A stretch of 64,000 bases of DNA from a virus. Taxonomy: Duplodnaviria > Caudoviricetes. Of this stretch, positions 4,165-49,921 are shown piece after piece. The position numbers and the translations under genes are program-made. Under the pieces are notes generated by a model. The model saw nothing but the letters and a program-made list of their open reading frames with translations. It ran no database searches and had not been told where the DNA came from. Numbering within the stretch: the first letter of the stretch is position 1; the number at the start of each line of letters is the position of its first letter. The stretch is from the IMG/VR virus record IMGVR_UViG_3300011008_002687, positions 47,270-111,269 of that record, one strand, 5' to 3'.

Positions 4165-5049
4165 TCAGACCTTCTTCAGGTACAGACTGGACGTGAAACC
4201 AGTGTACTTGGTGCCGTTGTAGGTCACCTGAATGTACAGCCACTTTCGGCCATTGGACTTGTCCACACTGTAGTAGCCGTAGTTCATGACCTTCAGACCA
4301 ACAGGCAGGACAACCATGGCCTTGTTTCCGGTACCGGCACCGTGCCGCATATAAACGGCAGCAGTGGTGACGTACTGTCCGGCCAGCTTCTTGTCAAAGC
4401 CCGTGGCATAGCCGGTTGCCCTGACTTCCTTCACCTTGCCGCTGGTGCTTCCGGATCCTGAACCGGATCCGCTGCCGGAACCAGTTCCGGAACCGCTGCT
4501 GGATCCACCAGCCTTGGCACCATCATCAAGTGCCATGACGGTATGACCGGAACTGACAAGCACGTCACCACGCTTCAGGTAGTCAGAAGATCCGGTGTAC
4601 TTCTTATCCGTCAGGATTTCATACTTGCCGGTCTTCTGATAGGCATTCTTCATGGTGCTGCACACCAGGGCATTTCCGGTATATTCCAGTTCCTTGACAC
4701 CGGCCAGGATAGCCAGCACGGTCTGGAAAGAACTGCAATCCGCTTCCGTGGCCACCTTGGACTTGATGTACTTGTCCACGTCATAGCCGTTTGCCTTCAG
4801 CTGATCATGCAGCGTGTTCCGCTGGGACTGGTCATAGCCTACCAGGTTGCTGTTGCACAGCTTTTCACATGCAGCGGCAGACTTTTCTGCCACAGCCGGA
4901 TCCTTCGGTCTAATGACAACCAGCCAGTCCTTGTTGTACCAGTAGGAAATCTTCACTTCAAGGCCGGTCTGGTCACCAGCCTTGGCACGTCCGTCCCATC
5001 CGGCATTGCCGTTTTCAGAAATGGACGCATGTCCGATTCTCACAGCCAT
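4165..5049 (-). CDS. Endolysin (NlpC/P60-CHAP-like catalytic domain, Gly/Ser linker, SH3b-like C-terminus)
   Basis: DCSS and GHT catalytic motifs, GSGSGSGS linker, last gene of late operon after holins. Confidence 0.8.
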   Translation of the reverse strand: MAVRIGHASISENGNAGWDGRAKAGDQTGLEVKISYWYNKDWLVVIRPKDPAVAEKSAAACEKLCNSNLVGYDQSQRNTLHDQLKANGYDVDKYIKSKVATEADCSSFQTVLAILAGVKELEYTGNALVCSTMKNAYQKTGKYEILTDKKYTGSSDYLKRGDVLVSSGHTVMALDDGAKAGGSSSGSGTGSGSGSGSGSGSTSGKVKEVRATGYATGFDKKLAGQYVTTAAVYMRHGAGTGNKAMVVLPVGLKVMNYGYYSVDKSNGRKWLYIQVTYNGTKYTGFTSSLYLKKV

Positions 5050-5059
5050 TGTGTTCACC

Positions 5060-5365
5060 TCACTTCTTTTCAAAATAAGCCATCAGCTTGTCAAAGCCGA
5101 ACATTGCAGCATAGGCCACCATGATGCCCACAATGACGAATGCAGCAACCAGATACCATGTCAGCATCATGCCATTCATCTGCCAGTAGGCAATGAACAC
5201 ACCCACCGTCAGAACAATGGACAGGCACAGCACAAAGATGTTGATCACCTTGGACGTACTAAGCCAGCTGAAGGATTTCTTCATCACTTCAGTGATGATG
5301 TTGACAAAAATGGTCAGAATTCCGACAATGATCAGAACCTGACTGATGATAGTTGAATAGTCCAT
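5060..5365 (-). CDS. Holin (3 predicted TM segments)
   Basis: Small hydrophobic protein directly upstream of endolysin. Confidence 0.7.
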   Translation of the reverse strand: MDYSTIISQVLIIVGILTIFVNIITEVMKKSFSWLSTSKVINIFVLCLSIVLTVGVFIAYWQMNGMMLTWYLVAAFVIVGIMVAYAAMFGFDKLMAYFEKK

Positions 5366-5383
5366 ATAGACGCACTTCCTTTC

Positions 5384-5707
5384 TTATCCCTTGGGTTCTT
5401 CTTCAGATGCAGAAAGATCAGGATCCGGCTGATCACCGGATCCCGTCTTCCTGATTTTGAACACGTTTTCAGCGCCTGCCTTGATGAAGTACCCAAAGAC
5501 ACAGGTGATCAGCACGTTGGTGGACAGTTCCATGAACGTCCCCAGATTGCTGTAATCACCGGAAACCATCATCACGATTGCAGAATAAAAGAAGGCTATG
5601 ACGTACAGCACAAAGCACGTGGCCACAACCTTCTTTGAAAATTCCCACAACCATGACAGCTTGGTCTGTTTCTTCTTTGAATGCTTATCCTTCATCCACA
5701 GCGCCAC
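5384..5707 (-). CDS. Small membrane protein of lysis cassette
   Basis: Two hydrophobic segments; position. Confidence 0.5.
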   Translation of the reverse strand: MALWMKDKHSKKKQTKLSWLWEFSKKVVATCFVLYVIAFFYSAIVMMVSGDYSNLGTFMELSTNVLITCVFGYFIKAGAENVFKIRKTGSGDQPDPDLSASEEEPKG

Positions 5708-6008
5708 TTGTTCCTTTCCCTTCCAAGAAGTTGATCCGTTTCCATGCAGATTTCAGGGATTCATCCAGACGGATGATCTTTTCAGTGTTTCCCTTCACGT
5801 CTTCTTTCAGGCTTTTCAGATCATTCTTGATTTCAGCAGTGTCACGGCCTATGCCTTCCAGCTTGACAATGACGGTGGTCAGGTCACTGGCTTCCCGTTT
5901 GTCATCAGAAGACTTGTTCCTTTTCAGATTGGCAATACCTGTGTAGATGCTGAAGGCAAGGGAAACAGCGGAAATCAGCAGTGCAATTTCAATAGTCATG
6001 TTGTTCAC
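5685..6008 (-). CDS. TM plus coiled-coil protein (holin-associated/XhlA-like)
   Basis: N-terminal TM followed by heptad coiled coil. Confidence 0.5.
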   Translation of the reverse strand: MNNMTIEIALLISAVSLAFSIYTGIANLKRNKSSDDKREASDLTTVIVKLEGIGRDTAEIKNDLKSLKEDVKGNTEKIIRLDESLKSAWKRINFLEGKGTSGAVDEG

Positions 6009-6089
6009 CTTTCCCTTCCGTCAGAAAGTGCCGTCAGACCTTATATAACGGTCATATACGGCACTTTCCAGCGTACTTGATATTTTCCC

Positions 6090-6224
6090 TTATCCTTCAT
6101 CAGGAACCTTGTCAGGATAGCCAGCATCAATGACAGCCTGTCTGACAGCAGGCTTCAGGGCAGCAGGCACCTGTTCAAAGGTCATCCGGTCATGAATGAT
6201 CAGGTTGGCATACACTTTTACCAT
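6090..6224 (-). CDS. Small phage protein, CD1375-like (44 aa; not in ORF track)
   Basis: MVKVYANLIIHDRMTFEQVPAALKPAVRQAV...; RBS AAGGAAGG. Confidence 0.65.
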   Translation of the reverse strand: MVKVYANLIIHDRMTFEQVPAALKPAVRQAVIDAGYPDKVPDEG

Positions 6225-6242
6225 GGTTCACACCTTCCTTTC

Positions 6243-6512
6243 TTACACCGTCAGAAGTCCGTAGACTTCCACCAGGCCTTCCTGGGTGTCCAGGATCTGA
6301 CTTTCAAGATCAGCCTGCTTGTCAGACTGCATCTTGATGTATTCATCCTTGTCATACTGCACCAGGTCATATTCATAACCGGTGAAGCCAGGTTCATCAT
6401 CCGTGCCTTCGGTGTTGATTGCCGTCACGTTGCTGGCAATCCAAACACTGAATTCATCCACCACAAGGGGTTCAGGCTGCACGGTTGCCTGTACACGTCC
6501 ATGATTGATCAT
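6243..6512 (-). CDS. Tail-fibre-associated small protein
   Basis: Likely start MINHG after AAGG RBS; overlaps 3' end of RT. Confidence 0.55.
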   Translation of the reverse strand: MINHGRVQATVQPEPLVVDEFSVWIASNVTAINTEGTDDEPGFTGYEYDLVQYDKDEYIKMQSDKQADLESQILDTQEGLVEVYGLLTV

Positions 6513-7662
6513 TTTCCTTACTTCCTTTCTTGATGTGTTTGAAATAGTATGCATCAGCGTATGGCTGAAGCGGATCCAGATACTTTTCAGTCAGACGGTG
6601 ACTGTCACAGTGGATCAGCCAGCCCTTATAGGAAGCAATGCTGCACCACTCTGAATAGTTCATTTCCTTGCCGGATTCCACCTTCTTCAGCAATCTGGTC
6701 ATCTTGTCCTTCATCTGATTGCAAGTGGACTTTCTAAGAAGGGTGTATTCCTTGAAGATCCGGTATCCAACAAAATCCACACCACGCTGATACGTGGGGA
6801 AGATCTGATAATTCCCTTTGATCCTCAAATTCAGTTCAGACTTCAGGTAGTCACCCATAGCTGCCAGGATCCTGTGAAGTTCTTCCTTGGTACTGGCAAA
6901 CACACAGATGTCATCCATGTATCTGTAGTAGTGCTTCACGTGAAGCACTTCCTTCATGAAGTGATCAAAGTCCGACAGGTAGAAGTTGCCGTCATATTGT
7001 GAAAAGTAGTTGCCTATGGGAATGCCAATACCATCAATGAACTGTTCATCCTTTCGCTGAACAATGGCAACGGTCTTTCCCAGTGACCTGTAAAACGCTA
7101 TGTTTTCATCCGTGGCCGGACAGGTGCTGATACTGTCAATGATTTCATCAATGACCTGAAGCAGTTCAGGATCCTTGTATTTCTTCCGGTACTTTGCCTT
7201 CAGGATGTCATGGTCAATGCTTGGATAGAACTTCTGACAGTCAATCTTGCAGCAGAACCGCAATTCATCAGGCACGGTGTCCACAGCGTTCCGAAGTTTC
7301 TTGAAGGCTGCATGTATTCCTTTATTTGGTATGGCTGAATAGGTATCATCCGTAAAGTGTGCCAACAGCTGTGGTTCAATCACCTGAATGATTGCCCATT
7401 GTGCTATCCTGTCAGGGAAGAACGGCAGCTTGTAGATTTCACGGACTTTGTTTCCCTCTTTCCGAAGGAACATTTCATAGCTGGAAGTGTGATAATCATG
7501 GTTGATCATCATTTCCTGAAGCAGCCCTAAGTAGTACCAGATATTCTTTTCAATTTCCCTTACTTCTTGATACCAGCCTTTTCCTTTCTTGGCATTCTTA
7601 TATGCCCGGTACAGATTGTCCATTGAAACAATCTTTTCAAATAAATAACCATAACGCTTCAC
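6472..7662 (-). CDS. DGR reverse transcriptase
   Basis: KxR-I, PFFPDRIAQ, KIDCQKFYPSI, GIPIGNYFSQ, RYMDD, DFVGY motifs; likely GTG start 7662 (VKRYGYLFEKI) after AAAGGA; adjacent to TR. Confidence 0.95.
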   Translation of the reverse strand: MKRYGYLFEKIVSMDNLYRAYKNAKKGKGWYQEVREIEKNIWYYLGLLQEMMINHDYHTSSYEMFLRKEGNKVREIYKLPFFPDRIAQWAIIQVIEPQLLAHFTDDTYSAIPNKGIHAAFKKLRNAVDTVPDELRFCCKIDCQKFYPSIDHDILKAKYRKKYKDPELLQVIDEIIDSISTCPATDENIAFYRSLGKTVAIVQRKDEQFIDGIGIPIGNYFSQYDGNFYLSDFDHFMKEVLHVKHYYRYMDDICVFASTKEELHRILAAMGDYLKSELNLRIKGNYQIFPTYQRGVDFVGYRIFKEYTLLRKSTCNQMKDKMTRLLKKVESGKEMNYSEWCSIASYKGWLIHCDSHRLTEKYLDPLQPYADAYYFKHIKKGSKENDQSWTCTGNRAA

Positions 7663-7872
7663 AGTGTTTCCTTTGTATGCACTAAGCCGAACCTTCGACA
7701 CGCACCGGAACCGGTGCATCCTACCAGTACAGCCTGTTTAGAATTTTGTCAGTGTTTTGCCAAGCGGCACGGTGACACGGTTGCAGTTCAAACTGGATGC
7801 AGAACACGCTGCATCACTTATTTATTGAAACACCCACCCGGTGTTGACCGGATGGGTGCTTTTTAGTGCATG

Positions 7873-8005
7873 TACTGACTGCCTGGAGATATTCCGATTA
7901 CGATTAGAAGACGAATTATTCAGATTCCGATTGAAGATCCTGGCTTTCAAGGCATTATTCCATTTACCACTGGATTTAGCTACATGCCAACTGGTGTTAC
8001 CATTT
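7873..8005 (-). repeat. DGR template repeat (TR)
   Basis: 133-bp ungapped match to 8153..8285; all 25 mismatches are at TR adenines (coding strand). Confidence 0.97.
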
Positions 8006-8113
8006 AGACTTTTTTGCTTTTTTCCAGTAGCCATGTGTGGTCTTCCACCTATCTTGCAAATAATCCGACTGTATAACCACGTCACCTATAGTTCTATGTT
8101 TCAGGCTATTGCC

Positions 8114-9949
8114 TTACGCAGCGTCAAGTTCCGCCTTCCTGCTGGGAATGAACACCGACCGCCCGGAGACATTCCGACCACGATAAGAAGACGAATAATG
8201 CAGATTCCGATAGAAGATCCCGGCCGCCAAGGCATTAGTCCACATACCACCGGATATAGCCACAAGCCAACCGGCGTTACCATTCCAGGTGTAATCACCA
8301 ACAGGCAGGGCACTGGTGCCGGAGAATTCCACACCAACAAAGATCCAGTCATAGTCTTCACTATAACCAAAAGCGCTGATGTAGTTGCCGCTGGTGTACG
8401 GAATACGGATGCCGGTGTCTTCATAGGGTGTAGCACCGGTGTCATCAGTAAAGCCGTGATCAGCCACATAAACAGTGCCGAACATGCCAGCCGCAAAACC
8501 GGAAGGATTCTGGATGTTGAAGCCGTCTTCCCACTTCCAGATGTTGCCCAACAGGTTTTCCTCACCACGATAGGACACAGCCTTCTGATGGTTGGCATTC
8601 TCTGCTTCACCGGAAGCGTTGCCAAGGTTCACCGTGGCACCGGTCAGTTCAGCCATGTTGGTGCTGCCGTCATCGGTCTTGTCCACAATGCCCTTGCCAA
8701 TGACGGTCTGACTGTTGAAGCTGCCGTACTCAATCAGCATCAGCAGCTGGGTACCGGCCAGCATGACAGCGTTCTGCTGTTCCCAGCCGTTGCCCATGTT
8801 GTGTGCCAGCTTTCTGGTGTTCGCCCTGGTCAGATTCTGTGTCAGGCCGGAAATGGGCTTGGCATTGGCAATGGAAGCCAGCTTGTCACCCGTGCTGACC
8901 GTGAAGTCAGCAACCTGATCATCATCCAAGATGTAGGCAGAAGCAGACACGTCATACAGGCAGCCTTCAAAGGCAGACTTGTAGATGAAGTCATCAACGG
9001 TTTTCCCCTCATTCATAGTGAACTGGGGATGGATCTTGAAGCCCTTCTTCGGCACGTCAGACACGTAGTATCTGATCTTCTTGGTCTTCCAGCCCTGGCT
9101 GACACCGTTGGCATCAAAGACTTCTTCAATGGACAGCGGCACAACCTTGTAGTAGAACTTCGGCTGTTCCACCATGACCTGAACCATGGTGCCGATAGGA
9201 TAGGTGACACCGCCTTTTTCCACGGCCTGAAGCAGTGCACCACCGGTGGTGTATGCAGTGTCACCCTGGTATGCCAGGACAACACCGTCAGCCGTCATGA
9301 TGCAGCGCTTTCTGCCGCCGAAGGCATTGATGCTGTCAAAACCAGCACCACCGGACTTGTTGACTGCACCGGCCAGACGGGTGAACTTCTTGTTGGCAAA
9401 GTCCACTTCAACACCATAGATGTCATTGTCAGAATATCCGACAAAACCCTTCAGGTCAGCAATTTCATCTTCCAGGGCATCAATGTCTTCAACCGTTGCA
9501 TAGGCACCGGAATAGACGCTGATGTCCACATCATCAGAATTGCCAACCGTGGTGTAGATCTGAATATAGGCAGAAGACACGGTGACACCTTTGTATGCAG
9601 GCATGTAGCAGAAACCGGAAGTTTCCACACACACGGCATACAGGATTTCACCAATGTCAGGATCCGTGGCATACAGGCCAAGGGAACGGAGATAGTACCC
9701 GGCAGCCAGTGCTTCATTGGTGAAGGCCGTTTCAACCTTCACAGAAGTGTGATTGGTGATGGTCACCCTGGTCACGCTGTTGGTCTGCTTGATCTGTTCC
9801 AGTGCAGTCAGACTTTCCAGCTGACTTTCTGCATAGGTCTTGGAAGACGTGCAGACCTTAGTGAAGACCAGGCTTGCCTGACCAGCAATGATCTTGGCAA
9901 CAAGTGCCTGACCTCTTGTGGTCAAATAAAGTTTGCTAAATTCAGCCAT
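8114..9949 (-). CDS. Tail fibre / receptor-binding protein, DGR target (C-terminal CLec/FGE-like domain)
   Basis: Tail-collar-like N-terminus; GNIWKWEDG and SGGxW...GRSV C-terminus containing VR; follows baseplate genes. Confidence 0.9.
   Translation of the reverse strand: MAEFSKLYLTTRGQALVAKIIAGQASLVFTKVCTSSKTYAESQLESLTALEQIKQTNSVTRVTITNHTSVKVETAFTNEALAAGYYLRSLGLYATDPDIGEILYAVCVETSGFCYMPAYKGVTVSSAYIQIYTTVGNSDDVDISVYSGAYATVEDIDALEDEIADLKGFVGYSDNDIYGVEVDFANKKFTRLAGAVNKSGGAGFDSINAFGGRKRCIMTADGVVLAYQGDTAYTTGGALLQAVEKGGVTYPIGTMVQVMVEQPKFYYKVVPLSIEEVFDANGVSQGWKTKKIRYYVSDVPKKGFKIHPQFTMNEGKTVDDFIYKSAFEGCLYDVSASAYILDDDQVADFTVSTGDKLASIANAKPISGLTQNLTRANTRKLAHNMGNGWEQQNAVMLAGTQLLMLIEYGSFNSQTVIGKGIVDKTDDGSTNMAELTGATVNLGNASGEAENANHQKAVSYRGEENLLGNIWKWEDGFNIQNPSGFAAGMFGTVYVADHGFTDDTGATPYEDTGIRIPYTSGNYISAFGYSEDYDWIFVGVEFSGTSALPVGDYTWNGNAGWLVAISGGMWTNALAAGIFYRNLHYSSSYRGRNVSGRSVFIPSRKAELDAA
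8153..8285 (-). repeat. DGR variable repeat (VR) at 3' end of tail-fibre gene
   Basis: A-to-N-only differences from TR. Confidence 0.97.
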
Positions 9950-10093
9950 AACATTTCTTCCTTTCTTGAAAACTATGATAGTGTATTATTTCAATGACCA
10001 TCATCAGGGACACCGTATGCCTTCCCATAACCACCTGCAAGCAGGGACACCGTATGGTCTGACATAACCACCTGGATCCGGATCACGGAAACC

Positions 10094-10723
10094 TTAGTGA
10101 TTATCAGATGTGATCTGATACATTTCTGTGCTGCTGATGACACCGGCAGACACACCGCCACTTGGCCGGAAGGTTTCACACCAGTCCTGTGTCAAGGTGA
10201 TCTGTGCATGGGTGGTCAGCCTTGCAGCAAAGGTATTGTTGCTGATTATGGTGCACATGATCTGATTGATGGAATACACCACGATGTTGCACGGCAGCAC
10301 TTCATTGAACAGTTCATTCAGTTCATCCACCTGGCCAAGGTTTTCCAGGTATGTTGTGATGGACAGCAGATATTCTTCAGTGAAACTGCCGCTGACAATG
10401 TAGTGATTGGCACCACACAGCACGTTCAGTTTCTGAAGAAATGTCTTCATGGTGTACGGCAGCAGATTCACCCAGTTCACCTGCACCCTGGATCTTCTGG
10501 ATTCCAGGTTGTCATGTTCATCTGGGATGATACCCATGATCTTTTCATATCTGCTGATGCCATATTCATCTGCCGTGCTGATGAAATGATTATACAGGCA
10601 GTGATCCACGGCATCCCATATCAGGATGAATTCCGGATTTTCTGCTTCCAGGGCAGCAACCTGTTCTTTGTATATCTGCAAATATGGGGGAAGGTATGAA
10701 ACCAGATCAACCTGTCTAACCAT
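10094..10723 (-). CDS. Baseplate/tail protein (XkdU/YmfQ-like)
   Basis: YLPPYL...F..TA...G..RYEK pattern; follows baseplate J. Confidence 0.7.
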   Translation of the reverse strand: MVRQVDLVSYLPPYLQIYKEQVAALEAENPEFILIWDAVDHCLYNHFISTADEYGISRYEKIMGIIPDEHDNLESRRSRVQVNWVNLLPYTMKTFLQKLNVLCGANHYIVSGSFTEEYLLSITTYLENLGQVDELNELFNEVLPCNIVVYSINQIMCTIISNNTFAARLTTHAQITLTQDWCETFRPSGGVSAGVISSTEMYQITSDNH

Positions 10724-11939
10724 TGATCACACCCCCAAACGTAGGAATCTGATACTTGGTCAAGGTGATGTTGTTTTCAGATCCGTTCAGCAGGACGCTT
10801 TCAATATCCAGCACACCTTCCACGGCCAGCACCCTGGATTCAATCTGGGAAACACGGACAACCAGATAGTCACTGTCTTCCCAGTCTTCACGCAAAGACT
10901 GAAGGTATTCATCAACAGTGCCTTCAATAGCATCCTTGCAAGCTGACCAGCTGTAGCCGGTATTAAACTGAAGACCTGTCAGCTTGACACTGATGGTCAC
11001 CGGTGAAGCAGATCTGACATTCACAACATGGCCGATTGGTGACAGGCCATAACCTTCACCAGTCATGGCATCCGGATCCAACGTGTTCTTCACAGAACTG
11101 ATCAGTGCAGGACTGGCTTCACCATAGTCATCACTGTCAATGATAGTGATCAGCACTGTGCCGCCAACAGTCAGCTTTCTGGATGCAGCTGCCGTATAAA
11201 CAGCAGTCAGCCATGTAGCCACTTCATCAGACAGGCCGCTGATCACCGATTCATACCAGGTATCCACATCTTCAGAAGGTACCAGGTCAGCAGGCTTGAT
11301 GTCACCATTCCAGACACGTTCAACTTTCACGGCACCAACACCGTTGATGCTTTTGACCTTATCAATATAGTCAGCACGGTTGCCGCCGAAGGCAAAGGTA
11401 CCAAAAGAATTGAAATACCGTGTCCGTAGGACTTCAGTGTCTTCTTCATCTTCACCAGGTATCAGCACTTCATCCAGTGTGGCCGTTTCCAGTCCCTGAA
11501 TGTATTCCATTGGAATCAGGTTGCCAAAATGCTGATTGCCGGTGATTCCAGCCGTTTCACACTGCACCTGATAGGTTCCGGCAGCGGCATTGATTGCAGA
11601 CAACACCACGTAGTTCAGACTGTCCAGGTTGAAACGCTGACCGATCAGTGCAGCGGATCCAACACTGGCCGGTGTGAATGTGGCCTTCAGCACCGCCTTG
11701 GTTGCCGGTTCAGGTTCTATGCCACGGTCTTTGCACAGAAGGATCAGGAAGTCACGTGATGCAGTGTCACCATAGCCGTCCTTGATCATCTGATCCAGTT
11801 CAATGTACAGCGTCTTCAGTTCAATGGCCGTAGGTGAATGTGTATCATAGATGACGGATCCTTCACGCTTGTCCAGGGAAGACGGCACCCGTGCCAGCAT
11901 TCTGTCCCTGATTTCTTCATAGGTCACATCTTCATACAT
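10716..11939 (-). CDS. Baseplate J/gp47 (XkdT-like)
   Basis: DKREGS..YD, G.DEE..E.LR.R, GGNRADY, PIGH motifs. Confidence 0.88.
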   Translation of the reverse strand: MYEDVTYEEIRDRMLARVPSSLDKREGSVIYDTHSPTAIELKTLYIELDQMIKDGYGDTASRDFLILLCKDRGIEPEPATKAVLKATFTPASVGSAALIGQRFNLDSLNYVVLSAINAAAGTYQVQCETAGITGNQHFGNLIPMEYIQGLETATLDEVLIPGEDEEDTEVLRTRYFNSFGTFAFGGNRADYIDKVKSINGVGAVKVERVWNGDIKPADLVPSEDVDTWYESVISGLSDEVATWLTAVYTAAASRKLTVGGTVLITIIDSDDYGEASPALISSVKNTLDPDAMTGEGYGLSPIGHVVNVRSASPVTISVKLTGLQFNTGYSWSACKDAIEGTVDEYLQSLREDWEDSDYLVVRVSQIESRVLAVEGVLDIESVLLNGSENNITLTKYQIPTFGGVING

Positions 11940-12343
11940 CAGAAATTCACCGTCCTTTCTTCTTTTATGTCACCAAAGACGGTGTGAACAGTGAATTTCA
12001 CGGCCACAACACCCTTCCTGGACAGATCAAATTCAAAGTCCGTCACGGACAGGATCCGTTCATCCCATGTCAACGCTTCAGTGATTCTTCTTTGCAGTTC
12101 AGGGCACACCCATGAAACAGGTTCCCCAAACAGATCCATCAGTTCAACACCGTAGTTCCATGAATACATTGGATACTTGTACCGCTCTGTGTTCAGTATC
12201 TTGAAGACAGCCTGTTTCATGGCATCAAGGCCGTCAACATATCCCCTGGTGGTGTTTCCTTCAAGATTCATCTTGTATGTTTTGCTTGGCTGTTCAGTGA
12301 TTTCAAAATCACTGGCTAAAAATCCGGAATTGGAAGGTATCAT
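11939..12343 (-). CDS. Baseplate wedge protein (XkdS/DUF2634-like)
   Basis: KILNTERYKY..YSWNYGVEL motif. Confidence 0.8.
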   Translation of the reverse strand: MIPSNSGFLASDFEITEQPSKTYKMNLEGNTTRGYVDGLDAMKQAVFKILNTERYKYPMYSWNYGVELMDLFGEPVSWVCPELQRRITEALTWDERILSVTDFEFDLSRKGVVAVKFTVHTVFGDIKEERTVNF

Positions 12344-13705: not shown

Positions 13706-13710
13706 CCTTT

Positions 13711-17900: not shown

Positions 17901-17906
17901 GACGTT

Positions 17907-36729: not shown

Positions 36730-36744
36730 TTTCTTTGTTGTCCC

Positions 36745-37908: not shown

Positions 37909-37926
37909 TCTTTTATCCTCTCTTTC

Positions 37927-38730: not shown

Positions 38731-38741
38731 TCCTTTCTTGG

Positions 38742-41907: not shown

Positions 41908-42658
41908 TTCCAGTGCATTCCTTGAAGATCACGGGATCAAAGTTAGGCAAGGCAAGGATGATGTCCCTGTATTCCTGGCACAGTCCGTCCCACCAAAGCT
42001 GTGCACAGTCACTTTCATCCAGTACCTTCAGATAACCACCCGTTGTCTTATATTCCGGATACTGCTGCTTTTCTTCATCCGTCATGTCACAGGCATATAC
42101 CCATTCCACAACATTCTTCGGAATCTGGTTCAGCAGATGGTATGCCTTGCTGTTCCACCAGTCACGCAGCGTCCAGTCAGACGGTTTGTTGAACATGGTG
42201 ATCTTCGGTTCAATCGTCATGAAACATCCGTTATTGAAAGAAGATTTGTTCCAGTCCCCGGTGTTCCAGTCCCCGGTGTTGCAGTCCCCGGTGTTCCTGT
42301 TCCCGGTGTTCCTGTTCCCGGTGTTCCTGTTCCCGGTGTTCCTGTTCCCGGTGTTCCTGTTCCCGGTGTTGCAGCCTTTCTGGACTTCATCCCAGGACAG
42401 TTCACGGATGATCAGCAGCTTGTTGGTGCAGAACTTGATGTCATCATCAGTCTTCACGTCACCAATGGCTTCCACTTCGGCCACAACCGTCTGATCAGGA
42501 TCAAAGGTGTAGAAGTTGAACACGTCCGGCAGCCGTTCACAGAAACGCATTCCGGATTCACACGGGATCAGCTGCACATCTTCTTCAAAGGTTTCACCAA
42601 CCTTGTACTGCTTGCCACGGCAAGTCCAGTCTTTATTAAATGCCTTGAATCCTTTCAT
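41891..42658 (-). CDS. Phage protein with NTG(N/D)x pentapeptide repeats
   Basis: KGFK.F...CRG.QY..G N-terminus and 8 pentapeptides. Confidence 0.7.
   Translation of the reverse strand: MKGFKAFNKDWTCRGKQYKVGETFEEDVQLIPCESGMRFCERLPDVFNFYTFDPDQTVVAEVEAIGDVKTDDDIKFCTNKLLIIRELSWDEVQKGCNTGNRNTGNRNTGNRNTGNRNTGNRNTGDCNTGDWNTGDWNKSSFNNGCFMTIEPKITMFNKPSDWTLRDWWNSKAYHLLNQIPKNVVEWVYACDMTDEEKQQYPEYKTTGGYLKVLDESDCAQLWWDGLCQEYRDIILALPNFDPVIFKECTGIDINA
42251..42370. repeat. 8 x 15-bp coding tandem repeat (5 identical CCTGTTCCCGGTGTT)
   Basis: Read directly. Confidence 0.95.
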
Positions 42659-42661
42659 GGC

Positions 42662-44011
42662 TTATTTCTCCTTTACGTTTACTTCAGCAATTTTCATGGC
42701 CATAATGGGCACCACGCTGTTTCCGATCTTGGCCACCTGTTCCTTCACCGGATACCTGTGACCGTCAATGTCACGGTCAATCACATATTCCTTCGGGAAT
42801 CCCTGTGCCAGCTTCAGTTCTTCAGGTTTCAGCATCCGGAACCAGATGTCTGCAATCACGTAGTGATCACCTTTTCTGGTCATAATGGTGCTGACCATTC
42901 CAAACCTGTCCTTGGTGGTGATGGTTGCCAGCGGTTCATCCACCGTCTGACCGCATCCCTGTCCGTAGTATTTCAGCAGGAACACCGACACCAAACCGAA
43001 GTGACCAGGGGAAGTGGTGATGGTGTGAAGCGGTTCCGTGACTTCCTGACCGGTTCCGGTCTTGTAGAACTTGGTAATGAACACGGACACCAGACCATAC
43101 CTGTTGGAAGTGTCAATGGTCTGAATCGGTTCATTCACGGTCTGTCCACGGCTGTCACCTTCCTTGGTTTCACTGTGATACTGGATCAGGAATGGCATGG
43201 CAGTCTGATCTGGCAGGAAATATGGATCAGGATTTTCAATCACATACTTCCGGATCCCGTTTGCAATTCGCTTCAACGTGGCATCTGCCAGTGGTTTCTT
43301 CCGTTCAAAGATAGAAGATCCCAGGTCAGTGAAGTCCAGCTTTTCAGCGACAGGTACCCACGGAAGCAGGCCGCCTTCACCGTTCTTGCTGTGTGTAGGC
43401 ACCGGCCAGCGGATTTCCTTACCGTCAGATCTGAATACTGCATACCAGCGTTTCCTGGTAGTTGGTGCACCGAAGTCAGCAGCCACCAGTGTCCGGCATT
43501 CAAAGCTGAAACCAAGATCCTTCATGGAAGTGATAAAGCGCTGATATTCCAGACCTTTCTTTTCCGGAATCGGATGTCCTTTGTCATCCAGGTCACCCCA
43601 TTCCTGGATTTCTTCCACGTTTTCCATGAACAGAACGGTGGGAAGATGTCCGGTGATGGTCAGGATCTGTTTGCATAGCCTGTGCACTGCCCACGGAAGA
43701 ATCCGAAGACCGGCTTCACGTGGCTGGCCACCCTTGGCCTTGCTGTGGCTGGTGCAGTCAGGACTTGCCCACATCACATCCACCGTGTCATCCGGATCCA
43801 GATAGTTGGCCAGATCAACCTGGAAGATGTCTTCAGTCAGGTGCAGTGTTCTGGGATGGTTCACTGTGTGCATCCGGATAGCGGCAGGATCATGGTTGAT
43901 TGCTATGTTCACTTCAATGCCTGCCATCCGTAGGCCTTCAGAAGCACCGCCGCCACCGGCAAAGCCGTCTATTGATACATGCTTCATAATCAGCACCATC
44001 CTTTCAGCCAT
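42662..44011 (-). CDS. C5-cytosine DNA methyltransferase
   Basis: FAGGGG, SPDC, ENV, R.R, IGNSV. Confidence 0.9.
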   Translation of the reverse strand: MAERMVLIMKHVSIDGFAGGGGASEGLRMAGIEVNIAINHDPAAIRMHTVNHPRTLHLTEDIFQVDLANYLDPDDTVDVMWASPDCTSHSKAKGGQPREAGLRILPWAVHRLCKQILTITGHLPTVLFMENVEEIQEWGDLDDKGHPIPEKKGLEYQRFITSMKDLGFSFECRTLVAADFGAPTTRKRWYAVFRSDGKEIRWPVPTHSKNGEGGLLPWVPVAEKLDFTDLGSSIFERKKPLADATLKRIANGIRKYVIENPDPYFLPDQTAMPFLIQYHSETKEGDSRGQTVNEPIQTIDTSNRYGLVSVFITKFYKTGTGQEVTEPLHTITTSPGHFGLVSVFLLKYYGQGCGQTVDEPLATITTKDRFGMVSTIMTRKGDHYVIADIWFRMLKPEELKLAQGFPKEYVIDRDIDGHRYPVKEQVAKIGNSVVPIMAMKIAEVNVKEK

Positions 44012-44895
44012 TCAATGGTTTCATGGTAGTTATCTTCCACCATCCGAAGTTCAGCCTTTTCCTGCTTTTCTCTGTCACAGATCTGCTGATACAGGTCATC
44101 ATCACGATAGGCAGTCACTTCATCACGGATCAGCTGTGTCAGCATTTGCGGTTCCAGTGCATCCAGTTCCCATGATTCTTCACCATATTCCTGGATGTAC
44201 TTATCACACCTGCTGTCAGTGATCTTTGCAGGATTGGGTGGTGGGTTGTATGTATCAACCTGATCCATGGTTAAAGCCACACGCTTCACATATACGTCTG
44301 CACCAAACATGTTCAGCCTGTCCTGAATATCCCTGGTCATATCAATTCCGGAAGGATCATGATCACCAAGATGAATGATGATCCGCTGTTCCCGGTGTTG
44401 CTGACTGATGAAGCGCTGTGCAGCTGACCACATTTCAGACTGGGAAGTATAACCACGGCAGCTGAAGTGTGGTGTGTCTATAGGTCTGCAAGCCTGACTT
44501 ACAATGTCAATCAGGGCATCCTTTTCCACCCAGACTTCCACATAGTTTGGTTGACCTTTCCACTTATCCAGCAGGTAGGAATACCTTGCCGAAGCAATCA
44601 CGTCTTCAGGACGTTCCCAGTGACTGTTCCCACGGATATATCTGGTTCTGTCAGTGATGCTGTTCCAATCAATCAGACCGGCCAATCTGCCATCATTGAT
44701 CAGATTGCCAATGTTCTTGTATGACCGTTCATTGTTTGGAATGTAACCACGTGCAACCAGTTGATAATAGGCCTGACGCAATGTCAGTTCATATCCTTGA
44801 TTGCTGTATTCGCTGACAACACCATTGATCAGTTTGATCAGATCCAGGCTGGACTTTCTGAAGTTGATTTCCCTGTACTGGATCTTAGGCATCAA
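43990..44895 (-). CDS. Toprim-domain (TopoVI-A/JetD-like) protein
   Basis: TLRQAYYQ, VEVWVEKD, GDHDPSG, WELDAL. Confidence 0.7.
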   Translation of the reverse strand: MMPKIQYREINFRKSSLDLIKLINGVVSEYSNQGYELTLRQAYYQLVARGYIPNNERSYKNIGNLINDGRLAGLIDWNSITDRTRYIRGNSHWERPEDVIASARYSYLLDKWKGQPNYVEVWVEKDALIDIVSQACRPIDTPHFSCRGYTSQSEMWSAAQRFISQQHREQRIIIHLGDHDPSGIDMTRDIQDRLNMFGADVYVKRVALTMDQVDTYNPPPNPAKITDSRCDKYIQEYGEESWELDALEPQMLTQLIRDEVTAYRDDDLYQQICDREKQEKAELRMVEDNYHETIEWLKGWC

Positions 44896-45313
44896 CTTTC
44901 ACCCCCTCTATCTGTTCCAGCCGGTCACCATTGATCACGTATGTCCAACTGTGATCCGTGGTCTTGATGCCATACCCCCAAGGGAAAACACCCTGCTGAA
45001 GTCCCTTAGACACCGTGTCCTTGTCAATGCCCATGGCCTTGGCTGCCTGTTTTACTGTCAGCCTTCTGATGGATCCTGCCTTCTTGGTCACCGGCATCAC
45101 ACCGAAGGCCGGAAGTTGATCATCTTCCTTGGTGAAGTAGTCCGGATCCAGTCCAAGTGACACTGCCATATCACGCTGAACGTCTTCCGGGGGAATCTGC
45201 TTGCCAGACAGGTACTGACTGATTGATCCCTTGGACTTTCCAGTCAGACCACAAACCTGTGTCTGCTTCAGATTCAGATCCTGCATAGCCTTTTTCAGTC
45301 TTTCATTGAACAT
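44885..45313 (-). CDS. Double HTH protein (XRE plus excisionase-like)
   Basis: SISQYLSG; LTVKQAAKAMG...GLQQG.FPWG. Confidence 0.65.
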   Translation of the reverse strand: MFNERLKKAMQDLNLKQTQVCGLTGKSKGSISQYLSGKQIPPEDVQRDMAVSLGLDPDYFTKEDDQLPAFGVMPVTKKAGSIRRLTVKQAAKAMGIDKDTVSKGLQQGVFPWGYGIKTTDHSWTYVINGDRLEQIEGVKVDA

Positions 45314-45346
45314 TCCTTGATACCTTCCTTTCTTTGCGGTTGATTA

Positions 45347-45571
45347 TTATTCCACCTTGTTGGCAAAAAAAATGGCTTCAAATTCTTCAGAAGTCATGTT
45401 CAGAAGATCCCGGAGAATGCAGGCTTCAGACATGGTGAATTCTGTCTTGTTGTTCAGCTTGTTCAGGAATCCCTGATGTGTCAGGCCACACTTTTCAGCA
45501 ATGAATGCAATCTTGTAGCCAGAATCATCAATCTTCTTCCGAAGAAGTTCAGTGTTGGTCATTGTTGCCAC
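45347..45571 (-). CDS. Cro-like HTH regulator
   Basis: IAEKCGL...NKLN...EF...E. Confidence 0.7.
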   Translation of the reverse strand: MATMTNTELLRKKIDDSGYKIAFIAEKCGLTHQGFLNKLNNKTEFTMSEACILRDLLNMTSEEFEAIFFANKVE

Positions 45572-45580
45572 CTTCCTTTC

Positions 45581-45781
45581 TTAAATATCACAGTTGCCGT
45601 CTTCCGGAAACTGGTTCTTGTTGTACTGCTTCCTGATCTGGACAAAGACCTTGCCTTCAGTGTCAGTCCGTTCAGACATTATGCTAAACTTTCCAGTCAG
45701 GCTTTTCTTGTAGTCCTGATATTCAGCCTGATTGTCAAACTGGATCACCTGTTCAATCCAGGCCAGTAGAATCTTTTTCAT
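45581..45781 (-). CDS. Hypothetical protein
   Basis: In-operon ORF. Confidence 0.45.
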   Translation of the reverse strand: MKKILLAWIEQVIQFDNQAEYQDYKKSLTGKFSIMSERTDTEGKVFVQIRKQYNKNQFPEDGNCDI

Positions 45782-45953
45782 GCTTCACCTGCTTTCCATT
45801 ACTTATGTAAAACCCTATGGGATTCTGCTTGTCTTTCTCATAAATCAGATCCGTTCCATCCTTCAAATTGATTTCAATTTTCAGATGCCGGTATGGTAAC
45901 CGTTCAACCCATTGTTCAATTTTGTTCAGTATTTTCCATTCTTCCTGCTTCAC
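45753..45953 (-). CDS. Hypothetical protein
   Basis: In-operon ORF. Confidence 0.45.
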   Translation of the reverse strand: MKQEEWKILNKIEQWVERLPYRHLKIEINLKDGTDLIYEKDKQNPIGFYISNGKQVKHEKDSTGLD

Positions 45954-46394
45954 TTTACGCTTGCACCCCTAAAGATGACCACCATGGAAGGAAATGGTGC
46001 TGCATTCTTCTGACTTCCAAACTTCAACCTTCCCTTCACAAACCGGATTTCAGACCGGTGCATGATGTAATTGTGGAAGTACCTGGTGTCAGTTCTGGAA
46101 GGAATCAGCAGCACAACCACCGTGTTGTCCTTCCTGGTTTCATAGAATGCCTTGGCCACCCACTTTTCAATCTCTGAATACGGTGGATTGCAGAAAACGA
46201 CATCCCCCCCCCCAGTCAGCTTTCAGGCCGTCATCTTCTTTGCTGAAATACCTGTTGCATTTATGGTTTTCTGCCGTTGCACACGGATCCAGGGTGAAAT
46301 GAAATTCTGCATCCAGTTCATTGAAGAAGTCCTGTGGTGTTGACCATTCATCAGATTTCTTGCTGAACATCACTTCAGTGTTCATAAGCATCAC
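45950..46394 (-). pseudogene. Phage N6-adenine DNA methyltransferase, frameshifted at G10 tract (46204..46213)
   Basis: WSTPQ..F...F.LDPCA in first ORF; removing one G gives DWGGDVVFCNPPYS continuing into second ORF (LIPSRTDT...APFPS). Confidence 0.85.
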
Positions 46395-46648
46395 CCCTTT
46401 TCACGCCACCGGAAGAAGTCATCTGCACGGTACAGCATGACAAAATCACCTTCCAGATCATCCAGATCATAATACTGACCAACTTCACGATCCATGGCCA
46501 CGATCACCAGCATGTAGAAGTCCTGTTCATATTCCATGCAGGCATCCCTGATTTCATCCAGTGTCAGCCGTCCACGGCTTTTCTTGATGTTCAGGATCCA
46601 CTGGCCGGTCTTGTCATAGTCAGACCAGACTTCAATTCCTTTCTTCAT
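46391..46648 (-). CDS. Hypothetical protein
   Basis: In-operon ORF. Confidence 0.5.
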   Translation of the reverse strand: MKKGIEVWSDYDKTGQWILNIKKSRGRLTLDEIRDACMEYEQDFYMLVIVAMDREVGQYYDLDDLEGDFVMLYRADDFFRWREKG

Positions 46649-46917
46649 GCCTGTGCTTCCTCTAAGCTGCTGGACACGTCATCAATCTGACCTTTCAGAT
46701 CATCCAAGGTGTTCCATGCATCATCCATGTTGCTGACGGCATCTTCTGCCATGCTGTACTTTTCCGATCCCTGAAGGTTTTCAGGCATGTTGTCCAGATA
46801 TTCCTGTTCTTCATCCTTAATAGATTCAATGTCATCCAAGATGGATTCCATTTCAGACTGAACTTCGGCCAACCTTTTGATCACGTCATCAATGGCTTTT
46901 CTTCTGATCTTGTTCAT
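46645..46917 (-). CDS. Hypothetical acidic coiled-coil protein
   Basis: MNK.RRK...EQE..DNMPENLQ. Confidence 0.55.
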   Translation of the reverse strand: MNKIRRKAIDDVIKRLAEVQSEMESILDDIESIKDEEQEYLDNMPENLQGSEKYSMAEDAVSNMDDAWNTLDDLKGQIDDVSSSLEEAQA

Positions 46918-46988
46918 AGTTCACATTCCTTTCTTTATAGTGTGAAGGGTGGTCTGTTATCCACCCTTCACGGTGCCTGCATTGGTTA

Positions 46989-47468
46989 TCACTTAATAGT
47001 GTAGAGGGTGTCAACTGCTTCCTTCCGGATCAAAAACATCACGTTTTCAACAGTCTGATCTTCACTGTGCTTCACAATGTCCTGTGCAATTTCATAGATC
47101 CAGTGAACTGTAGGATCCTGCACACCAACAGTGTTCAGCATGAAGTTGTAGTCAGACACGCTGCCACAGGTGTACAGGTTGTGCTTGATGCACATGCAGC
47201 GGATGCTGTCCGGATCCCACTTGGTTTCTTCAATGATTTCCGGTTCCTGTTCAATGTAGATCCGGATGGTCTTGATCCCTTTGCCTTCCTGGATGTTCAG
47301 TTCCAGGGAAGTGTTCAGGTCACTGATCCAGCTGTTGTTTCCTTCGGCAGCGCTCATGAAGATAGGGTATCCTGCATTTTCACTGGCCTTATAGTCCTTT
47401 TCCCAGTCTGTGGGGAAAAGTCTTTCAGCTTCCTTCCAAGCTGCTTCACGGTTCCTGACTTTAATCAT
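46989..47468 (-). CDS. First gene of early lytic operon, hypothetical
   Basis: Follows leftward promoter; RBS AAAGGAATGTGA. Confidence 0.6.
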   Translation of the reverse strand: MIKVRNREAAWKEAERLFPTDWEKDYKASENAGYPIFMSAAEGNNSWISDLNTSLELNIQEGKGIKTIRIYIEQEPEIIEETKWDPDSIRCMCIKHNLYTCGSVSDYNFMLNTVGVQDPTVHWIYEIAQDIVKHSEDQTVENVMFLIRKEAVDTLYTIK

Positions 47469-47529
47469 GATTCACATTCCTTTCATTGGTTATCACTTGG
47501 ACTTTTTCTGGATGCTGCTACATCCGGAA

Positions 47530-47549
47530 GGTTGATTATTGTTCCACCT
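47530..47549. promoter_or_regulatory. Probable repressor operator GGTTGATTATTRTTCCACCT (second copy 45338..45357)
   Basis: 19/20 identity between copies; quasi-palindromic; just downstream of the early promoter. Confidence 0.6.
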
Positions 47550-47555
47550 GCTGCT

Positions 47556-47584
47556 ATCTTACCACCACGGGGAATGCCTGTCAA
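47556..47584 (-). promoter_or_regulatory. Early lytic promoter
   Basis: TTGACA-17 bp-TAAGAT with extended TG. Confidence 0.75.
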
Positions 47585-47612
47585 CTATTTTTTCAGGAAA
47601 TTGAAAAAATTA

Positions 47613-47641
47613 TTGAACATAGGGCAACCACGTGGTAAAAT
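47613..47641 (+). promoter_or_regulatory. Repressor promoter
   Basis: TTGAAC-17 bp-TAAAAT with extended TG. Confidence 0.65.
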
Positions 47642-47666
47642 GGTACCTATGAAAGGGGGTGATCAT

Positions 47667-48092
47667 ATGGGTGCCAGCAAAGATCCTTATCTTCAGACGC
47701 TTGGCCAAAACATCAAATACCTTCGGATTCAACATGGCTGGTCACAGGAAGAACTGGCTGAAAAATGTGGATATACTTCTGACACCAGAAAGTCAACCAT
47801 CAGCAAAATTGAAAACGGTCAATCAGACCTTCCCATTTCAAAACTGAAGATCTTTGCCAAGGTTCTTGGTGTGACATGTTCAGATCTTTGTGACAGCGTT
47901 CAGGACAAAGAACAAAAGATCATCTGTGATCTGATGGAAAAATGCTATGGCCAGGATGCATACAGAATGGTGCAGACGTTTCTGAAGCTGGATCAGGATG
48001 ACCGGCTGATCATCTATGGTGAAATGCTGGGAATGATGAAGGCTGACAAGTATGCTGTGAAAAAAGAATCATCAGAACAGAAGGCAATGTGA
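47667..48092 (+). CDS. CI-like XRE repressor
   Basis: IKYLR...WSQEELAEKCGY...STISKIENG; divergent from early operon; start reassigned after GGGGGTGA RBS. Confidence 0.85.
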   Translation: MGASKDPYLQTLGQNIKYLRIQHGWSQEELAEKCGYTSDTRKSTISKIENGQSDLPISKLKIFAKVLGVTCSDLCDSVQDKEQKIICDLMEKCYGQDAYRMVQTFLKLDQDDRLIIYGEMLGMMKADKYAVKKESSEQKAM

Positions 48093-48114
48093 TCTATGTT
48101 GACTTTTCACATGA

Positions 48115-48310
48115 CAGGTAACGGTTGGTAACGGGTAACGGTTGCTTTTTCTACTCTTATATTTTCACTTTTTTCAAAATTATTCTAAGTACACTTATAG
48201 TAATTTACTGCAAAAATGAAAACAGCCGTAACCAAGCGTTACCACCTGTAAAATCAACGCTTTTCAACCGTTACCTGAACCGTTACCAAGTAGTGATTCA
48301 ACCGTAACCA
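48115..48310. repeat. Second GGTAACGG/ACCGTTACC array flanking AT-rich tract
   Basis: Same motif and layout as 30495..30815. Confidence 0.75.
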
Positions 48311-48332
48311 ATGCCAAGAAAGGGGTGTTTTT

Positions 48333-48773
48333 ATGTTTGGGAAGAAGAAAAATGACAAGCCGGATGCAGTTGGCAATCATGTTTCCGGTCTTGATCTGCC
48401 TGAAGGCCAGCTTGTATCCGTTACCTTGACAGATGAACAGGTAATCATCAAGGCACCTGCCGCAAAAAAGGAATACAGCATCACGCTGGACAGGGTGACA
48501 GGGGTTTCACAGTATGATGATGTGGAAATTCAAAGCCACATGAAGTCATCATTGGCCAGGGGAATTGCCGGTGCTGTCGCCTTCGGTCTTGCCGGTGCTG
48601 TTATTGGCAGTCAGCCAAAGGAAAAGAAGAAACGTGTGATCCACATGTTCCTGGTGATTGACTATGTTGACGGTCAGATCATTATCACGTCTGATGTATG
48701 CTACAGGTTTTCAGATGTAGTGAAAAAGTTCAATGAACTGAAGCCGCAGACTGAACAAAAGATTTCACTGTAA
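48333..48773 (+). CDS. Lysogeny-module protein with glycine-rich hydrophobic segment
   Basis: RGIAGAVAFGLAGAVIG; between cI and int. Confidence 0.6.
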   Translation: MFGKKKNDKPDAVGNHVSGLDLPEGQLVSVTLTDEQVIIKAPAAKKEYSITLDRVTGVSQYDDVEIQSHMKSSLARGIAGAVAFGLAGAVIGSQPKEKKKRVIHMFLVIDYVDGQIIITSDVCYRFSDVVKKFNELKPQTEQKISL

Positions 48774-48856
48774 ACAAAAAAGAGGACATCCGGTGTAGCA
48801 GCACCGGATGTCCAAGTGATAACCAATTCAAGGAATGTGTTGAATTGGGCTATGCA
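48774..48856 (-). ncRNA. Putative ~80-nt antisense RNA upstream of integrase
   Basis: Promoter TTGCTA-17-TATGAT (48863..48891) and terminator GGACATCCGGTG-CTGCTA-CACCGGATGTCC-TCTTTTTT; complementary to early leader. Confidence 0.6.
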
Positions 48857-48898
48857 CCCTTAATCATAGCACACATTCCTTGAAATAGCAAGGAAGGA

Positions 48899-49921
48899 AT
48901 GTCTATGGGAAGAAGGAATCCAAACGGCTATGGCTGTGTGACAAAGCTGTCCGGCCATAGAACCAGACCATGGGTGGTGAAGGTGACCATCTATGATGAA
49001 GAAGGCAAGGCCAAGCAAACACCTGTGGCCTATGCAGCCACGGAACAGGAAGCCATGATCCTGCTGGCCAAGTACAACAATAATCCGTGGGAAGTGGACA
49101 GGGAAACCATCACCCTGGCTTCACTCTATCAGCGCTGGTCAAAGATCAAGCTGCCGAAGCTGGGGATCAGCACACAGCAGTCATTGAAGTCAGCCTTCAG
49201 GCACTGTTCCAAGTATTACGGCACCAAGTACCGGCAGATCAAGTCCTATCAGATGCAGGATACCATTGACAACTGTGGCAAGGGATATTCCACCCAGGGC
49301 GCAATCAAGGCACTGTGGGGACACCTTGACCGGTTTGCCTTTGAACTGGACATCATTGACAAGATGTACAGCCAGCTGACATCAGCTGCACCAATTCCTG
49401 AAACCACCAGGGAACCATTCACCCAGGAACAGATAGATGACCTGTGGAAGATCTCTGATCAGCCATATGTGAACACCGTGCTGATTTATCTGTACACCGG
49501 CTTCAGACTGACTGAACTTCTAACCATGAAGGCTGAACAGGTGAACATGGATGAACTGTACTTCCAAGGTGGGATCAAGACGGCATCAGGCAAAGGCAGA
49601 ATTGTTCCCATCCATCACAGGATCCAACCATTTGTGAAGGATCTGGTCAGCACCGGCAGCACGTACCTGTTCACCTATGACGGGAAGAAGATCAGCAATG
49701 CAAAATACTATGAACTGTGGAACACCGTGATGCAGGCCATTGGTGCAGACAAGACACCGCATGAAGCCAGACACACATTTGAAACCAGGCTGGATAATGC
49801 CAACGGCAACCGGAAGTGTATTGACATGCTGATGGGACATAAGTCAAAAGACGTGGGAAACAGGGTGTATAATCACAAAACCGTGAACCAGCTGAAGGAA
49901 ACCATTGAACTGTTGCAGTAA
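48899..49921 (+). CDS. int: Tyrosine integrase (inner prophage)
   Basis: YTGFR..E, K, HEARHT, MGH, VYNH. Confidence 0.95.
   Translation: MSMGRRNPNGYGCVTKLSGHRTRPWVVKVTIYDEEGKAKQTPVAYAATEQEAMILLAKYNNNPWEVDRETITLASLYQRWSKIKLPKLGISTQQSLKSAFRHCSKYYGTKYRQIKSYQMQDTIDNCGKGYSTQGAIKALWGHLDRFAFELDIIDKMYSQLTSAAPIPETTREPFTQEQIDDLWKISDQPYVNTVLIYLYTGFRLTELLTMKAEQVNMDELYFQGGIKTASGKGRIVPIHHRIQPFVKDLVSTGSTYLFTYDGKKISNAKYYELWNTVMQAIGADKTPHEARHTFETRLDNANGNRKCIDMLMGHKSKDVGNRVYNHKTVNQLKETIELLQ

Follow-up and report, generated by a model that had tools for sequence, protein, structure and literature searches.

Near-erasure of GAG/CTC and TCG/CGA from a lineage of temperate phages of gut Clostridia, probably through cumulative avoidance of restriction-type targets

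Restriction-site avoidance has its classical cases in Bacillus phages and coliphages. In this phenomenon, of which a survey exists (Rusinov et al. 2018, PMC6286503), short targets become under-represented in the phage through synonymous choice, the host genome is spared, and the pressure is relieved where a phage methylase covers the site. We describe here a phage that shares these features and in which the under-represented words are shorter than those of the published cases. The window that we analysed, 64,000 nucleotides long, is the last 64 kb of the 111,269-bp virus record IMGVR_UViG_3300011008_002687, and it contains two nested phages: an outer one and, inside it, a second, complete temperate siphophage that has lost ~95% of the GAG/CTC and ~85% of the TCG/CGA expected over its 45.8 kb. 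Whereas the published cases concern fully specified sites of 4-6 bp, the words lost from the inner phage are non-palindromic trinucleotide pairs (pooled observed/expected 0.06 for GAG/CTC and 0.13 for TCG/CGA); the phage is, moreover, temperate, and many of its other purged words are asymmetric and Type IIS-like. A literature search found no description of purging at the level of trinucleotides.

The outer DNA belongs to a phage related to Faecalibacterium phage FP_Brigit, with genes for a Dam-like/GNAT-like fusion, ParB, RecT, a replisome organiser and its own integrase. The inner phage is bounded by 18-bp direct repeats at both ends, and a DNA-level search of the phage collection found no near relative of either phage. 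The parts of the window on which the comparison rests are the following.

4148..49939, no strand: inner prophage, a compositional island marked by its short-word depletion
4130..4147, plus strand: left 18-bp direct repeat, the att core, AGTAACAAATTAGAAACA
49940..49957, plus strand: right 18-bp direct repeat, the att core
48899..49921, plus strand: inner tyrosine integrase
1..4129: left flank of the outer phage, an internal control with normal GAG/CTC and TCG/CGA and its own purged restriction-like words
49958..64000: right flank of the outer phage, the same internal control

An earlier note, made from the letters of the sequence, had claimed strong depletion of the inner phage on the basis of hand counts, and these were exact: the inner integrase gene holds no GAG, two CTC, no TCG and one CGA, the segment 16021-16335 is free of both GAG and CTC, and 52021-52080 in the outer DNA holds four CTC. 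Extended to the island as a whole (4165-49921, 45.7 kb), the counts are 11 GAG, 73 CTC, 73 TCG and 105 CGA, set against 139, 592, 330 and 172 in 18.2 kb of outer DNA. Zero-order observed/expected ratios in the inner phage are thus 0.02 for GAG, 0.08 for CTC, 0.10 for TCG and 0.17 for CGA, and those of the outer DNA for the same four trinucleotides lie between 0.78 and 1.31. A first-order Markov correction gives inner ratios of 0.019, 0.088, 0.168 and 0.325, respectively, with z from -12 to -26, and a 2-kb profile across the entire 111-kb record, in agreement with these scores, drops sharply and exactly at the borders of the inner prophage. GAG/CTC words lie on average 545 bp apart inside the island versus 25 bp outside.

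How much of this could be a by-product of coding? The earlier note had held that codon bias is not enough, and it was right: when the genes were shuffled synonymously, with proteins and codon usage kept, the off-frame words remained far below expectation, at 9 CTC against 256 expected, 19 GAG against 251, 58 CGA against 653 and 93 TCG against 439 (z -20 to -33). Intergenic DNA of the inner phage holds 5 GAG+CTC where 75 are expected and 7 TCG+CGA where 67 are. The ribosome-binding sites are affected as well, as had also been noticed: GAG occurs within the Shine-Dalgarno region of 6 of the 59 inner genes, which mostly use AAGGA/AAGGAAGG or GGGGGTG types, compared with GGAG(G) in 16 of the 25 outer genes. 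The shuffle, the intergenic DNA and the ribosome-binding sites together place the depletion at the level of DNA, where it is strand-symmetric and has reshaped translation signals. Several of the surviving GAGs (at 12745, 14412, 44906, 42668 and 37918) are themselves part of Shine-Dalgarno sequences, AGAGGGGGTG three times and AAGGAGAAA once, and may have been retained by selection for translation.

The depletion belongs to a phage lineage and extends across two orders of Clostridia. Two replication genes of the inner phage matter here; relatives were collected through the first, the marker of the lineage.

34218..36182, minus strand: divergent family-B DNA polymerase, the lineage marker gene, with a homologue in Pseudomonas phage 73
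31778..33682, minus strand: D5-type primase-helicase, conserved across the lineage

A search of IMG/VR with the polymerase yielded 80 relatives, at 99% and at 65-69% identity, and all of them are depleted, in a graded fashion by cluster of relatives (0.17-0.61 for GAG/CTC, 0.17-0.32 for TCG/CGA). Related prophages also reside in the genomes of F. prausnitzii, Clostridium sp. OF03-18AA and a Lachnospiraceae metagenome-assembled genome (MAG), hosts whose GC contents are 60, 50 and 36%. Over each of these three prophages GAG+CTC falls 4-8-fold and CGCG falls to zero, with sharp edges, and both the flanking and the remote host DNA has normal word frequencies; these three genomes constitute our host comparison, and for the present record the outer phage serves as the control. 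Because the relatives are depleted and host DNA is normal, the depletion is a trait of the phage lineage, neither one of the host nor an artefact of assembly, and the condition under which the earlier note would have been refuted, equal depletion of the host chromosome, does not hold in any of the three hosts. The lineage is one of temperate siphophages of gut Clostridia (Lachnospiraceae, Faecalibacterium). A 5.3-kb contig binned to a Candidatus Enterousia MAG, with a polymerase 40% identical to that of the inner phage, stands at 0.11 for GAG/CTC and 0.21 for TCG/CGA, and may be one more purged lineage or else a wrongly binned piece of a Clostridia phage.

The two trinucleotide pairs are not the sole words to have gone. 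The minimal purged words of the inner phage comprise GAG/CTC, TCG/CGA, CGCG, CTAG, ACGCC, CCCGC, GACCC, GGWCC, GGCCC and eight hexamer palindromes; CGCG and CTAG stand at 0 and TCGA at 0.01, and 33 of the 64 hexamer palindromes are absent. The outer phage, taken as its flanks plus the rest of the 111-kb record, has purged CGCG, CTAG, five pentamers and 22 hexamers, ACGT, CACGG, CCAGA, CCAGC, GAAGC and GACCC among its words, and lacks 29 of the 64 hexamer palindromes; neither GAG/CTC nor TCGA is purged there. CGCG, CTAG and GACCC are common to both purges, and the near absence of GACCC/GGGTC from both phages suggests one shared host enzyme. Many purged words match what we take to be prototype sites (FnuDII, AvaII, FauI, HindIII, ScaI, MfeI and PstI, and also AatII, SphI, NaeI, BbsI, XhoI, SacI and others), and the asymmetric pentamers resemble Type IIS sites. 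Among members of the lineage the purged 4-5-mers vary (GGCC, CCWGG, AGCT, GCGC, ACGT), as would be expected if their hosts carry different sets of enzymes. Losses of this kind are characteristic of restriction-site avoidance, which each of the two nested phages displays with its own words.

The relatives also form a graded series within GAG/CTC. In the less-depleted ones GAGAC, GAGTC, GAGGC, GAGCT, CTGAG and CGAG are near zero and other GAG contexts are mildly low. Cluster A is near zero at GGAGG (0.05) and GAGGC and normal at TGAGA (1.2) and AGAGG; cluster B is additionally near zero at GAGAC, GAGTC and CTGAG; and the purge gets as far as the trinucleotide itself in the phage described here, as it does in cluster C and the F. 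prausnitzii prophage. The four GAGNC pentamers are the lowest everywhere. Given this heterogeneity of context in the less-depleted relatives, the series fits the accumulation of several GAG-containing targets. A search for bipartite targets in the pooled relatives (each of the four trinucleotides plus any trinucleotide, spacers of 2-9 bp) was uninterpretable, near-identical sequences having been counted repeatedly, and the appearance of CGAGG among the N6-methyladenine (m6A) motifs of a gut-phage methylome paper is not decisive.

Polymorphism in the relatives bears on whether selection or mutation removed the words. In codon alignments of four conserved genes from three clusters of relatives, and relative to what the observed spectrum of mutations predicts, synonymous polymorphisms reach 0.74, 0.45 and 0.68 where they create GAG/CTC and 0.80, 0.38 and 0.30 where they create TCG/CGA. 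Alleles that create GAG/CTC are singletons more often than the remaining synonymous alleles are (combined p = 0.005). The test polarises by the minor allele, uses a model without recombination and returns a modest effect; on these terms it lends some support to weak, ongoing purifying selection per site, which is favoured because a mutation bias leaves allele frequencies unshifted.

We favour, with moderate confidence, a cumulative avoidance in which the many restriction-type targets have GAG/CTC and TCG/CGA cores in common. Host defences that target DNA, mainly restriction enzymes, would cut at short words, and selection would remove these words from the genomes of the lineage by way of context-dependent synonymous codons, altered Shine-Dalgarno sequences and changes in non-coding DNA. 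The classes purged in this way would be 4-bp palindromes, Type IIS-like asymmetric pentamers and about half of the 6-bp palindromes. Targets containing GAG/CTC would include GAGAC, GAGTC, GAGGC, GAGCT, CTGAG, GGAGG and CTCGAG, and those containing TCG/CGA would include TCGA, ATCGAT, TTCGAA, CATCG and CGAG; the overlap of so many would make the trinucleotides nearly vanish in the most extreme members, this phage included, and CCWGG and, here, GGCC, which the phage can protect with its methyltransferase, would be spared. The purge bears the marks of avoidance, namely under-representation on both strands, independence of codons, occurrence in the phage and not in the host, and the sparing of methylase-protected sites, and we infer that restriction-type defences were the selective agent, as we infer the enzymes concerned. 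The earlier note had offered two explanations, avoidance of a host defence that recognises very short motifs and erosion by the phage's own C5-methyltransferase. The first stands in its general form, given the restriction to a lineage, the absence from hosts, the accompanying loss of restriction sites and a modest signature in polymorphism; the second, taken up below, does not.

Several points weigh against cumulative avoidance. As a union of longer sites, the purge would require a minimum of four specificities of 4 bp or some sixteen of 5 bp, all with GAG in common, and our tests leave GAG/CTC as a common core across phyla unaccounted for. All 16 NGAGN pentamers of this phage stand at or below 0.14, even the most permissive contexts being depleted at least 5-fold, and the polymorphism signal is of modest size. 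The enzyme names given to the purged words are tentative assignments to REBASE prototypes, and the analysis, whose data do not include this record's host, yielded no cognate enzyme. Finally, the published survey finds avoidance to be weaker in temperate phages and to concern mostly orthodox Type II sites (PMC6286503).

A possible, though doubtful, alternative is that a single widespread system reads the 3-bp core GAG/CTC, and another TCG/CGA, each selecting directly against the trinucleotide. Candidates would be a nuclease, a phosphorothioate-type system, with its 3-nt motif, or a bipartite enzyme with a constant GAG half-site and partners that vary. The uniformly low values of the 16 NGAGN contexts speak for such a reader. 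So does the depth of the purge: this phage, cluster C and the F. prausnitzii prophage, and with them Pseudomonas phage 73 (NC_007806, Septimatrevirus), all have the trinucleotide as their smallest purged word, a convergent purge in hosts of different phyla. Phage 73 has 28 GAG/CTC against 1432 expected (0.02). Like the inner phage it combines this purge with others, of 43 further restriction-like words, and with a homologous polymerase (30% identity, E 2e-24), but its host is proteobacterial (P. aeruginosa) and its TCG/CGA is enriched 1.9-fold rather than depleted, which marks GAG/CTC as an independent unit. No published description of the phage 73 purge was found in our literature search. The four trinucleotides worst hit in the inner phage are exactly those that tile CTCGAG, a tiling with a chance of ~6%; because phage 73 purges GAG/CTC without TCG/CGA, we treat this as a curiosity.

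Other evidence is harder to reconcile with a 3-bp reader. Our literature search found no bacterial enzyme with a fully specified 3-bp site; the strong heterogeneity of GAG contexts in less-depleted relatives, as between TGAGA and GGAGG in cluster A, fits longer targets better; the hosts and the co-resident outer phage have normal GAG/CTC; and Type I sites are not, as a rule, avoided (PMC6286503). Only tentatively, then, might several phyla share an unrecognised GAG/CTC-core defence, or a set of related bipartite enzymes whose half-site is constant, in response to which unrelated phages, namely the gut Clostridia prophages, Pseudomonas phage 73 and Acinetobacter phage IMEAB3, would have convergently erased the trinucleotide.

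It is improbable that the replication module itself brings about the purge, the polymerase or its partners mutating GAG/CTC preferentially or being unable to tolerate it. The two verified purged lineages, this one and phage 73, do share a homologous polymerase, and IMEAB3, with a polymerase of the same family, is purged to 0.20. We sampled 13 other carriers of this divergent polymerase family: besides IMEAB3, the Enterousia-binned contig is purged and Enterococcus phage IME-EF4 partly so (GAG/CTC 0.52), yet nine of the 13 are unpurged, namely Paenibacillus phage LincolnB (0.90), which is the closest relative in culture, one Bacillus prophage (0.85) and seven more. The skew of GAG/CTC-creating variants towards low frequency is, furthermore, unlike mutation bias, and a polymerase cannot produce palindrome purges that are specific to individual members. 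Since the polymerase link is patchy, we rate an intrinsic cause as low, not zero. Two carriers with genes for 7-deazaguanine DNA modification, Sphingomonas phage MMDA13 and Rhizobium phage RHph_N17, in which these genes (DpdA/QueC/QueD/FolE) adjoin the polymerase, are not purged of GAG/CTC (0.70 and 0.93), a hint that modification and purging may be alternatives.

The inner phage encodes a modification enzyme of its own, in a slot flanked by a helicase.

42662..44011, minus strand: C5 cytosine methyltransferase with three tandem repeats resembling target-recognition domains
40549..41907, minus strand: SNF2 helicase, flanking the methylase slot

Multispecific C5-methyltransferases are carried by the Bacillus phages SPR, phi3T and rho11s, and the inner methylase resembles them in its size (~450 amino acids, here 449) and in its tandem target-recognition-like modules, which take the form of three ~38-residue repeats (GQxVxEPxxTIxT...LVS) in the variable region; its probable targets, CCWGG and GGCC, are spared. 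Unlike theirs, it belongs by sequence to another widespread phage family, and its specificity is predicted; the nearest cultured matches include Bacillus phage phi105. The repeats may be target-recognition modules, which would make the enzyme multispecific. The four carriers have CCWGG at 1.6-2.2, whereas it lies at 0-0.29 in most relatives without this methylase, cluster A (0.96) being an exception. In the phage described here CCWGG is at 2.0 and GGCC at 1.13; the F. prausnitzii prophage, whose allele departs from this one mainly in its first repeat, is without any GGCC. From the retention of CCWGG in carriers and the three target-recognition-like repeats, the methylase looks protective and multispecific, its targets probably CCWGG and perhaps GGCC, and methylation and purging look like alternative solutions. 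CCGG was considered as a further word spared by the methylase and dropped, being equally enriched in methylase-free relatives, the outer phage and hosts. A PDB search with the methylase sequence matched the catalytic N-terminus alone and was uninformative on specificity, and no specificity could be read from the within-cluster 4-mer comparison for a 335-aa methylase found in some relatives.

Could this enzyme instead have caused the depletion, by methylating words that deamination of 5-methylcytosine (5mC) then erodes, as the earlier note alternatively proposed? The gene is present, and CpG in the inner phage is at 0.51 with an excess of TpG/CpA, a likeness to vertebrate-type CpG depletion; we nevertheless consider erosion very unlikely as an explanation, and in the form of erosion by the phage's own methylase it is refuted. 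Depletion and this methylase family do not co-occur across the relatives: none of the 80 depleted metagenomic loci has a homologue of the 449-aa enzyme; among 43 loci (33 metagenomic, 10 host-genome) that span the slot from SNF2 to the helix-turn-helix (HTH) gene only that of F. prausnitzii holds this methylase there, the slot being empty in more than 40 relatives; and 12 of 19 near-complete relatives are without the PF00145 domain altogether. Within clusters, genomes with and without a methylase are alike in every 4-mer. Conversely, a Bacillus prophage whose methylase is 45% identical is undepleted (GAG/CTC 0.85, TCG/CGA 0.95). The words themselves also depart from the vertebrate-type pattern, since CpG loss depends on context (CGCG and TCGA are all but gone, but CCGG is at 2.0 and TTCGG at 0.88), the candidate methylated contexts CCWGG and GGCC are likewise not depleted, and GAG/CTC contains no CpG.

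Equally poor are the prospects of CRISPR, in the sense that loss of protospacer-adjacent motifs (PAMs) evades spacer acquisition or interference. PAMs are 2-3 nt long, and PAM depletion has been reported for Pseudomonas phages, as with the P. aeruginosa type I-F system (PMC12174588); there, too, a host defence reads a word of 2-3 nt and selection acts against it. In the type I-B system of C. difficile, however, GAG is non-functional and served as a negative control, the functional PAM being YCN (PMC8406132, PMC4556805), and CCA, TCA and TTC, common PAM words in Clostridia, are enriched 1.6-2.2-fold in the inner phage, so that the known Clostridia PAMs are not the depleted words; the depletion here is also far deeper, and the palindrome loss that goes with it is no PAM effect. 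Codon bias or mimicry of host composition has next to no chance of being the answer, as GAG, CTC, TCG and CGA are rare as codons too (47 of 940 Glu, 4 of 1079 Leu, 13 of 788 Ser and 9 of 609 Arg codons) but off-frame and intergenic depletion is equally strong, and hosts and outer phage are undepleted.

The inner prophage is ~95% coding, with nearly all genes on the minus strand; besides the integrase, C5-methyltransferase, SNF2 helicase, family-B polymerase and D5-type primase, they encode a large terminase, a MuF-like protein and a reverse transcriptase, among others. The MuF-like head protein carries a C-terminal papain-fold glutamine deamidase toxin domain (24492-26279, minus strand), a fusion that fits the MuF polymorphic toxins, a known type carried in the virions of temperate phages. 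Between the SNF2 helicase and the methylase lies a gene for a protein with DUF7666 and pentapeptide repeats (41891-42658, minus strand); pentapeptide-repeat proteins can be DNA mimics, and this one may have a role against restriction or on gyrase. The reverse transcriptase, of a type typical of diversity-generating retroelements, adjoins a gene for a 611-aa tail-fibre-like protein (6472-9949, minus strand), and two of the 11 plus-strand GAGs sit there at ~7886 and ~8166, in a repeated stretch that probably represents the template and variable repeats. Very long open frames of 513-718 aa run antisense to real genes, all on the plus strand (7841-9997, 15129-16808, 18916-20457 and 41849-43678); they are probably not genes, being a by-product of depleted TTA/CTA, the complements of stop codons. 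In the outer phage, one further feature touches on modification.

1850..3250, minus strand: outer-phage fusion of Dam-like and GNAT-like domains, an adenine-modification kit

This kit is a possible reason why the outer phage retains A-containing words that the inner phage has purged.

The nested pair is a rare internal control, two phages of one cell with different purged sets and different modification enzymes, and it illustrates how purging and modification can each answer the same need. A true 3-bp reader, if there is one, would represent a new kind of defence specificity, for which Pseudomonas phage 73, being cultured, offers an experimental handle. A temperate phage can far exceed what surveys lead one to expect, to the point of rewriting even its ribosome-binding sites. 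If cumulative avoidance is the correct explanation, this lineage would be a natural record of the enzyme specificities that circulate among gut Clostridia, and lists of purged words could be read as host-range or defence fingerprints of uncultured phages.

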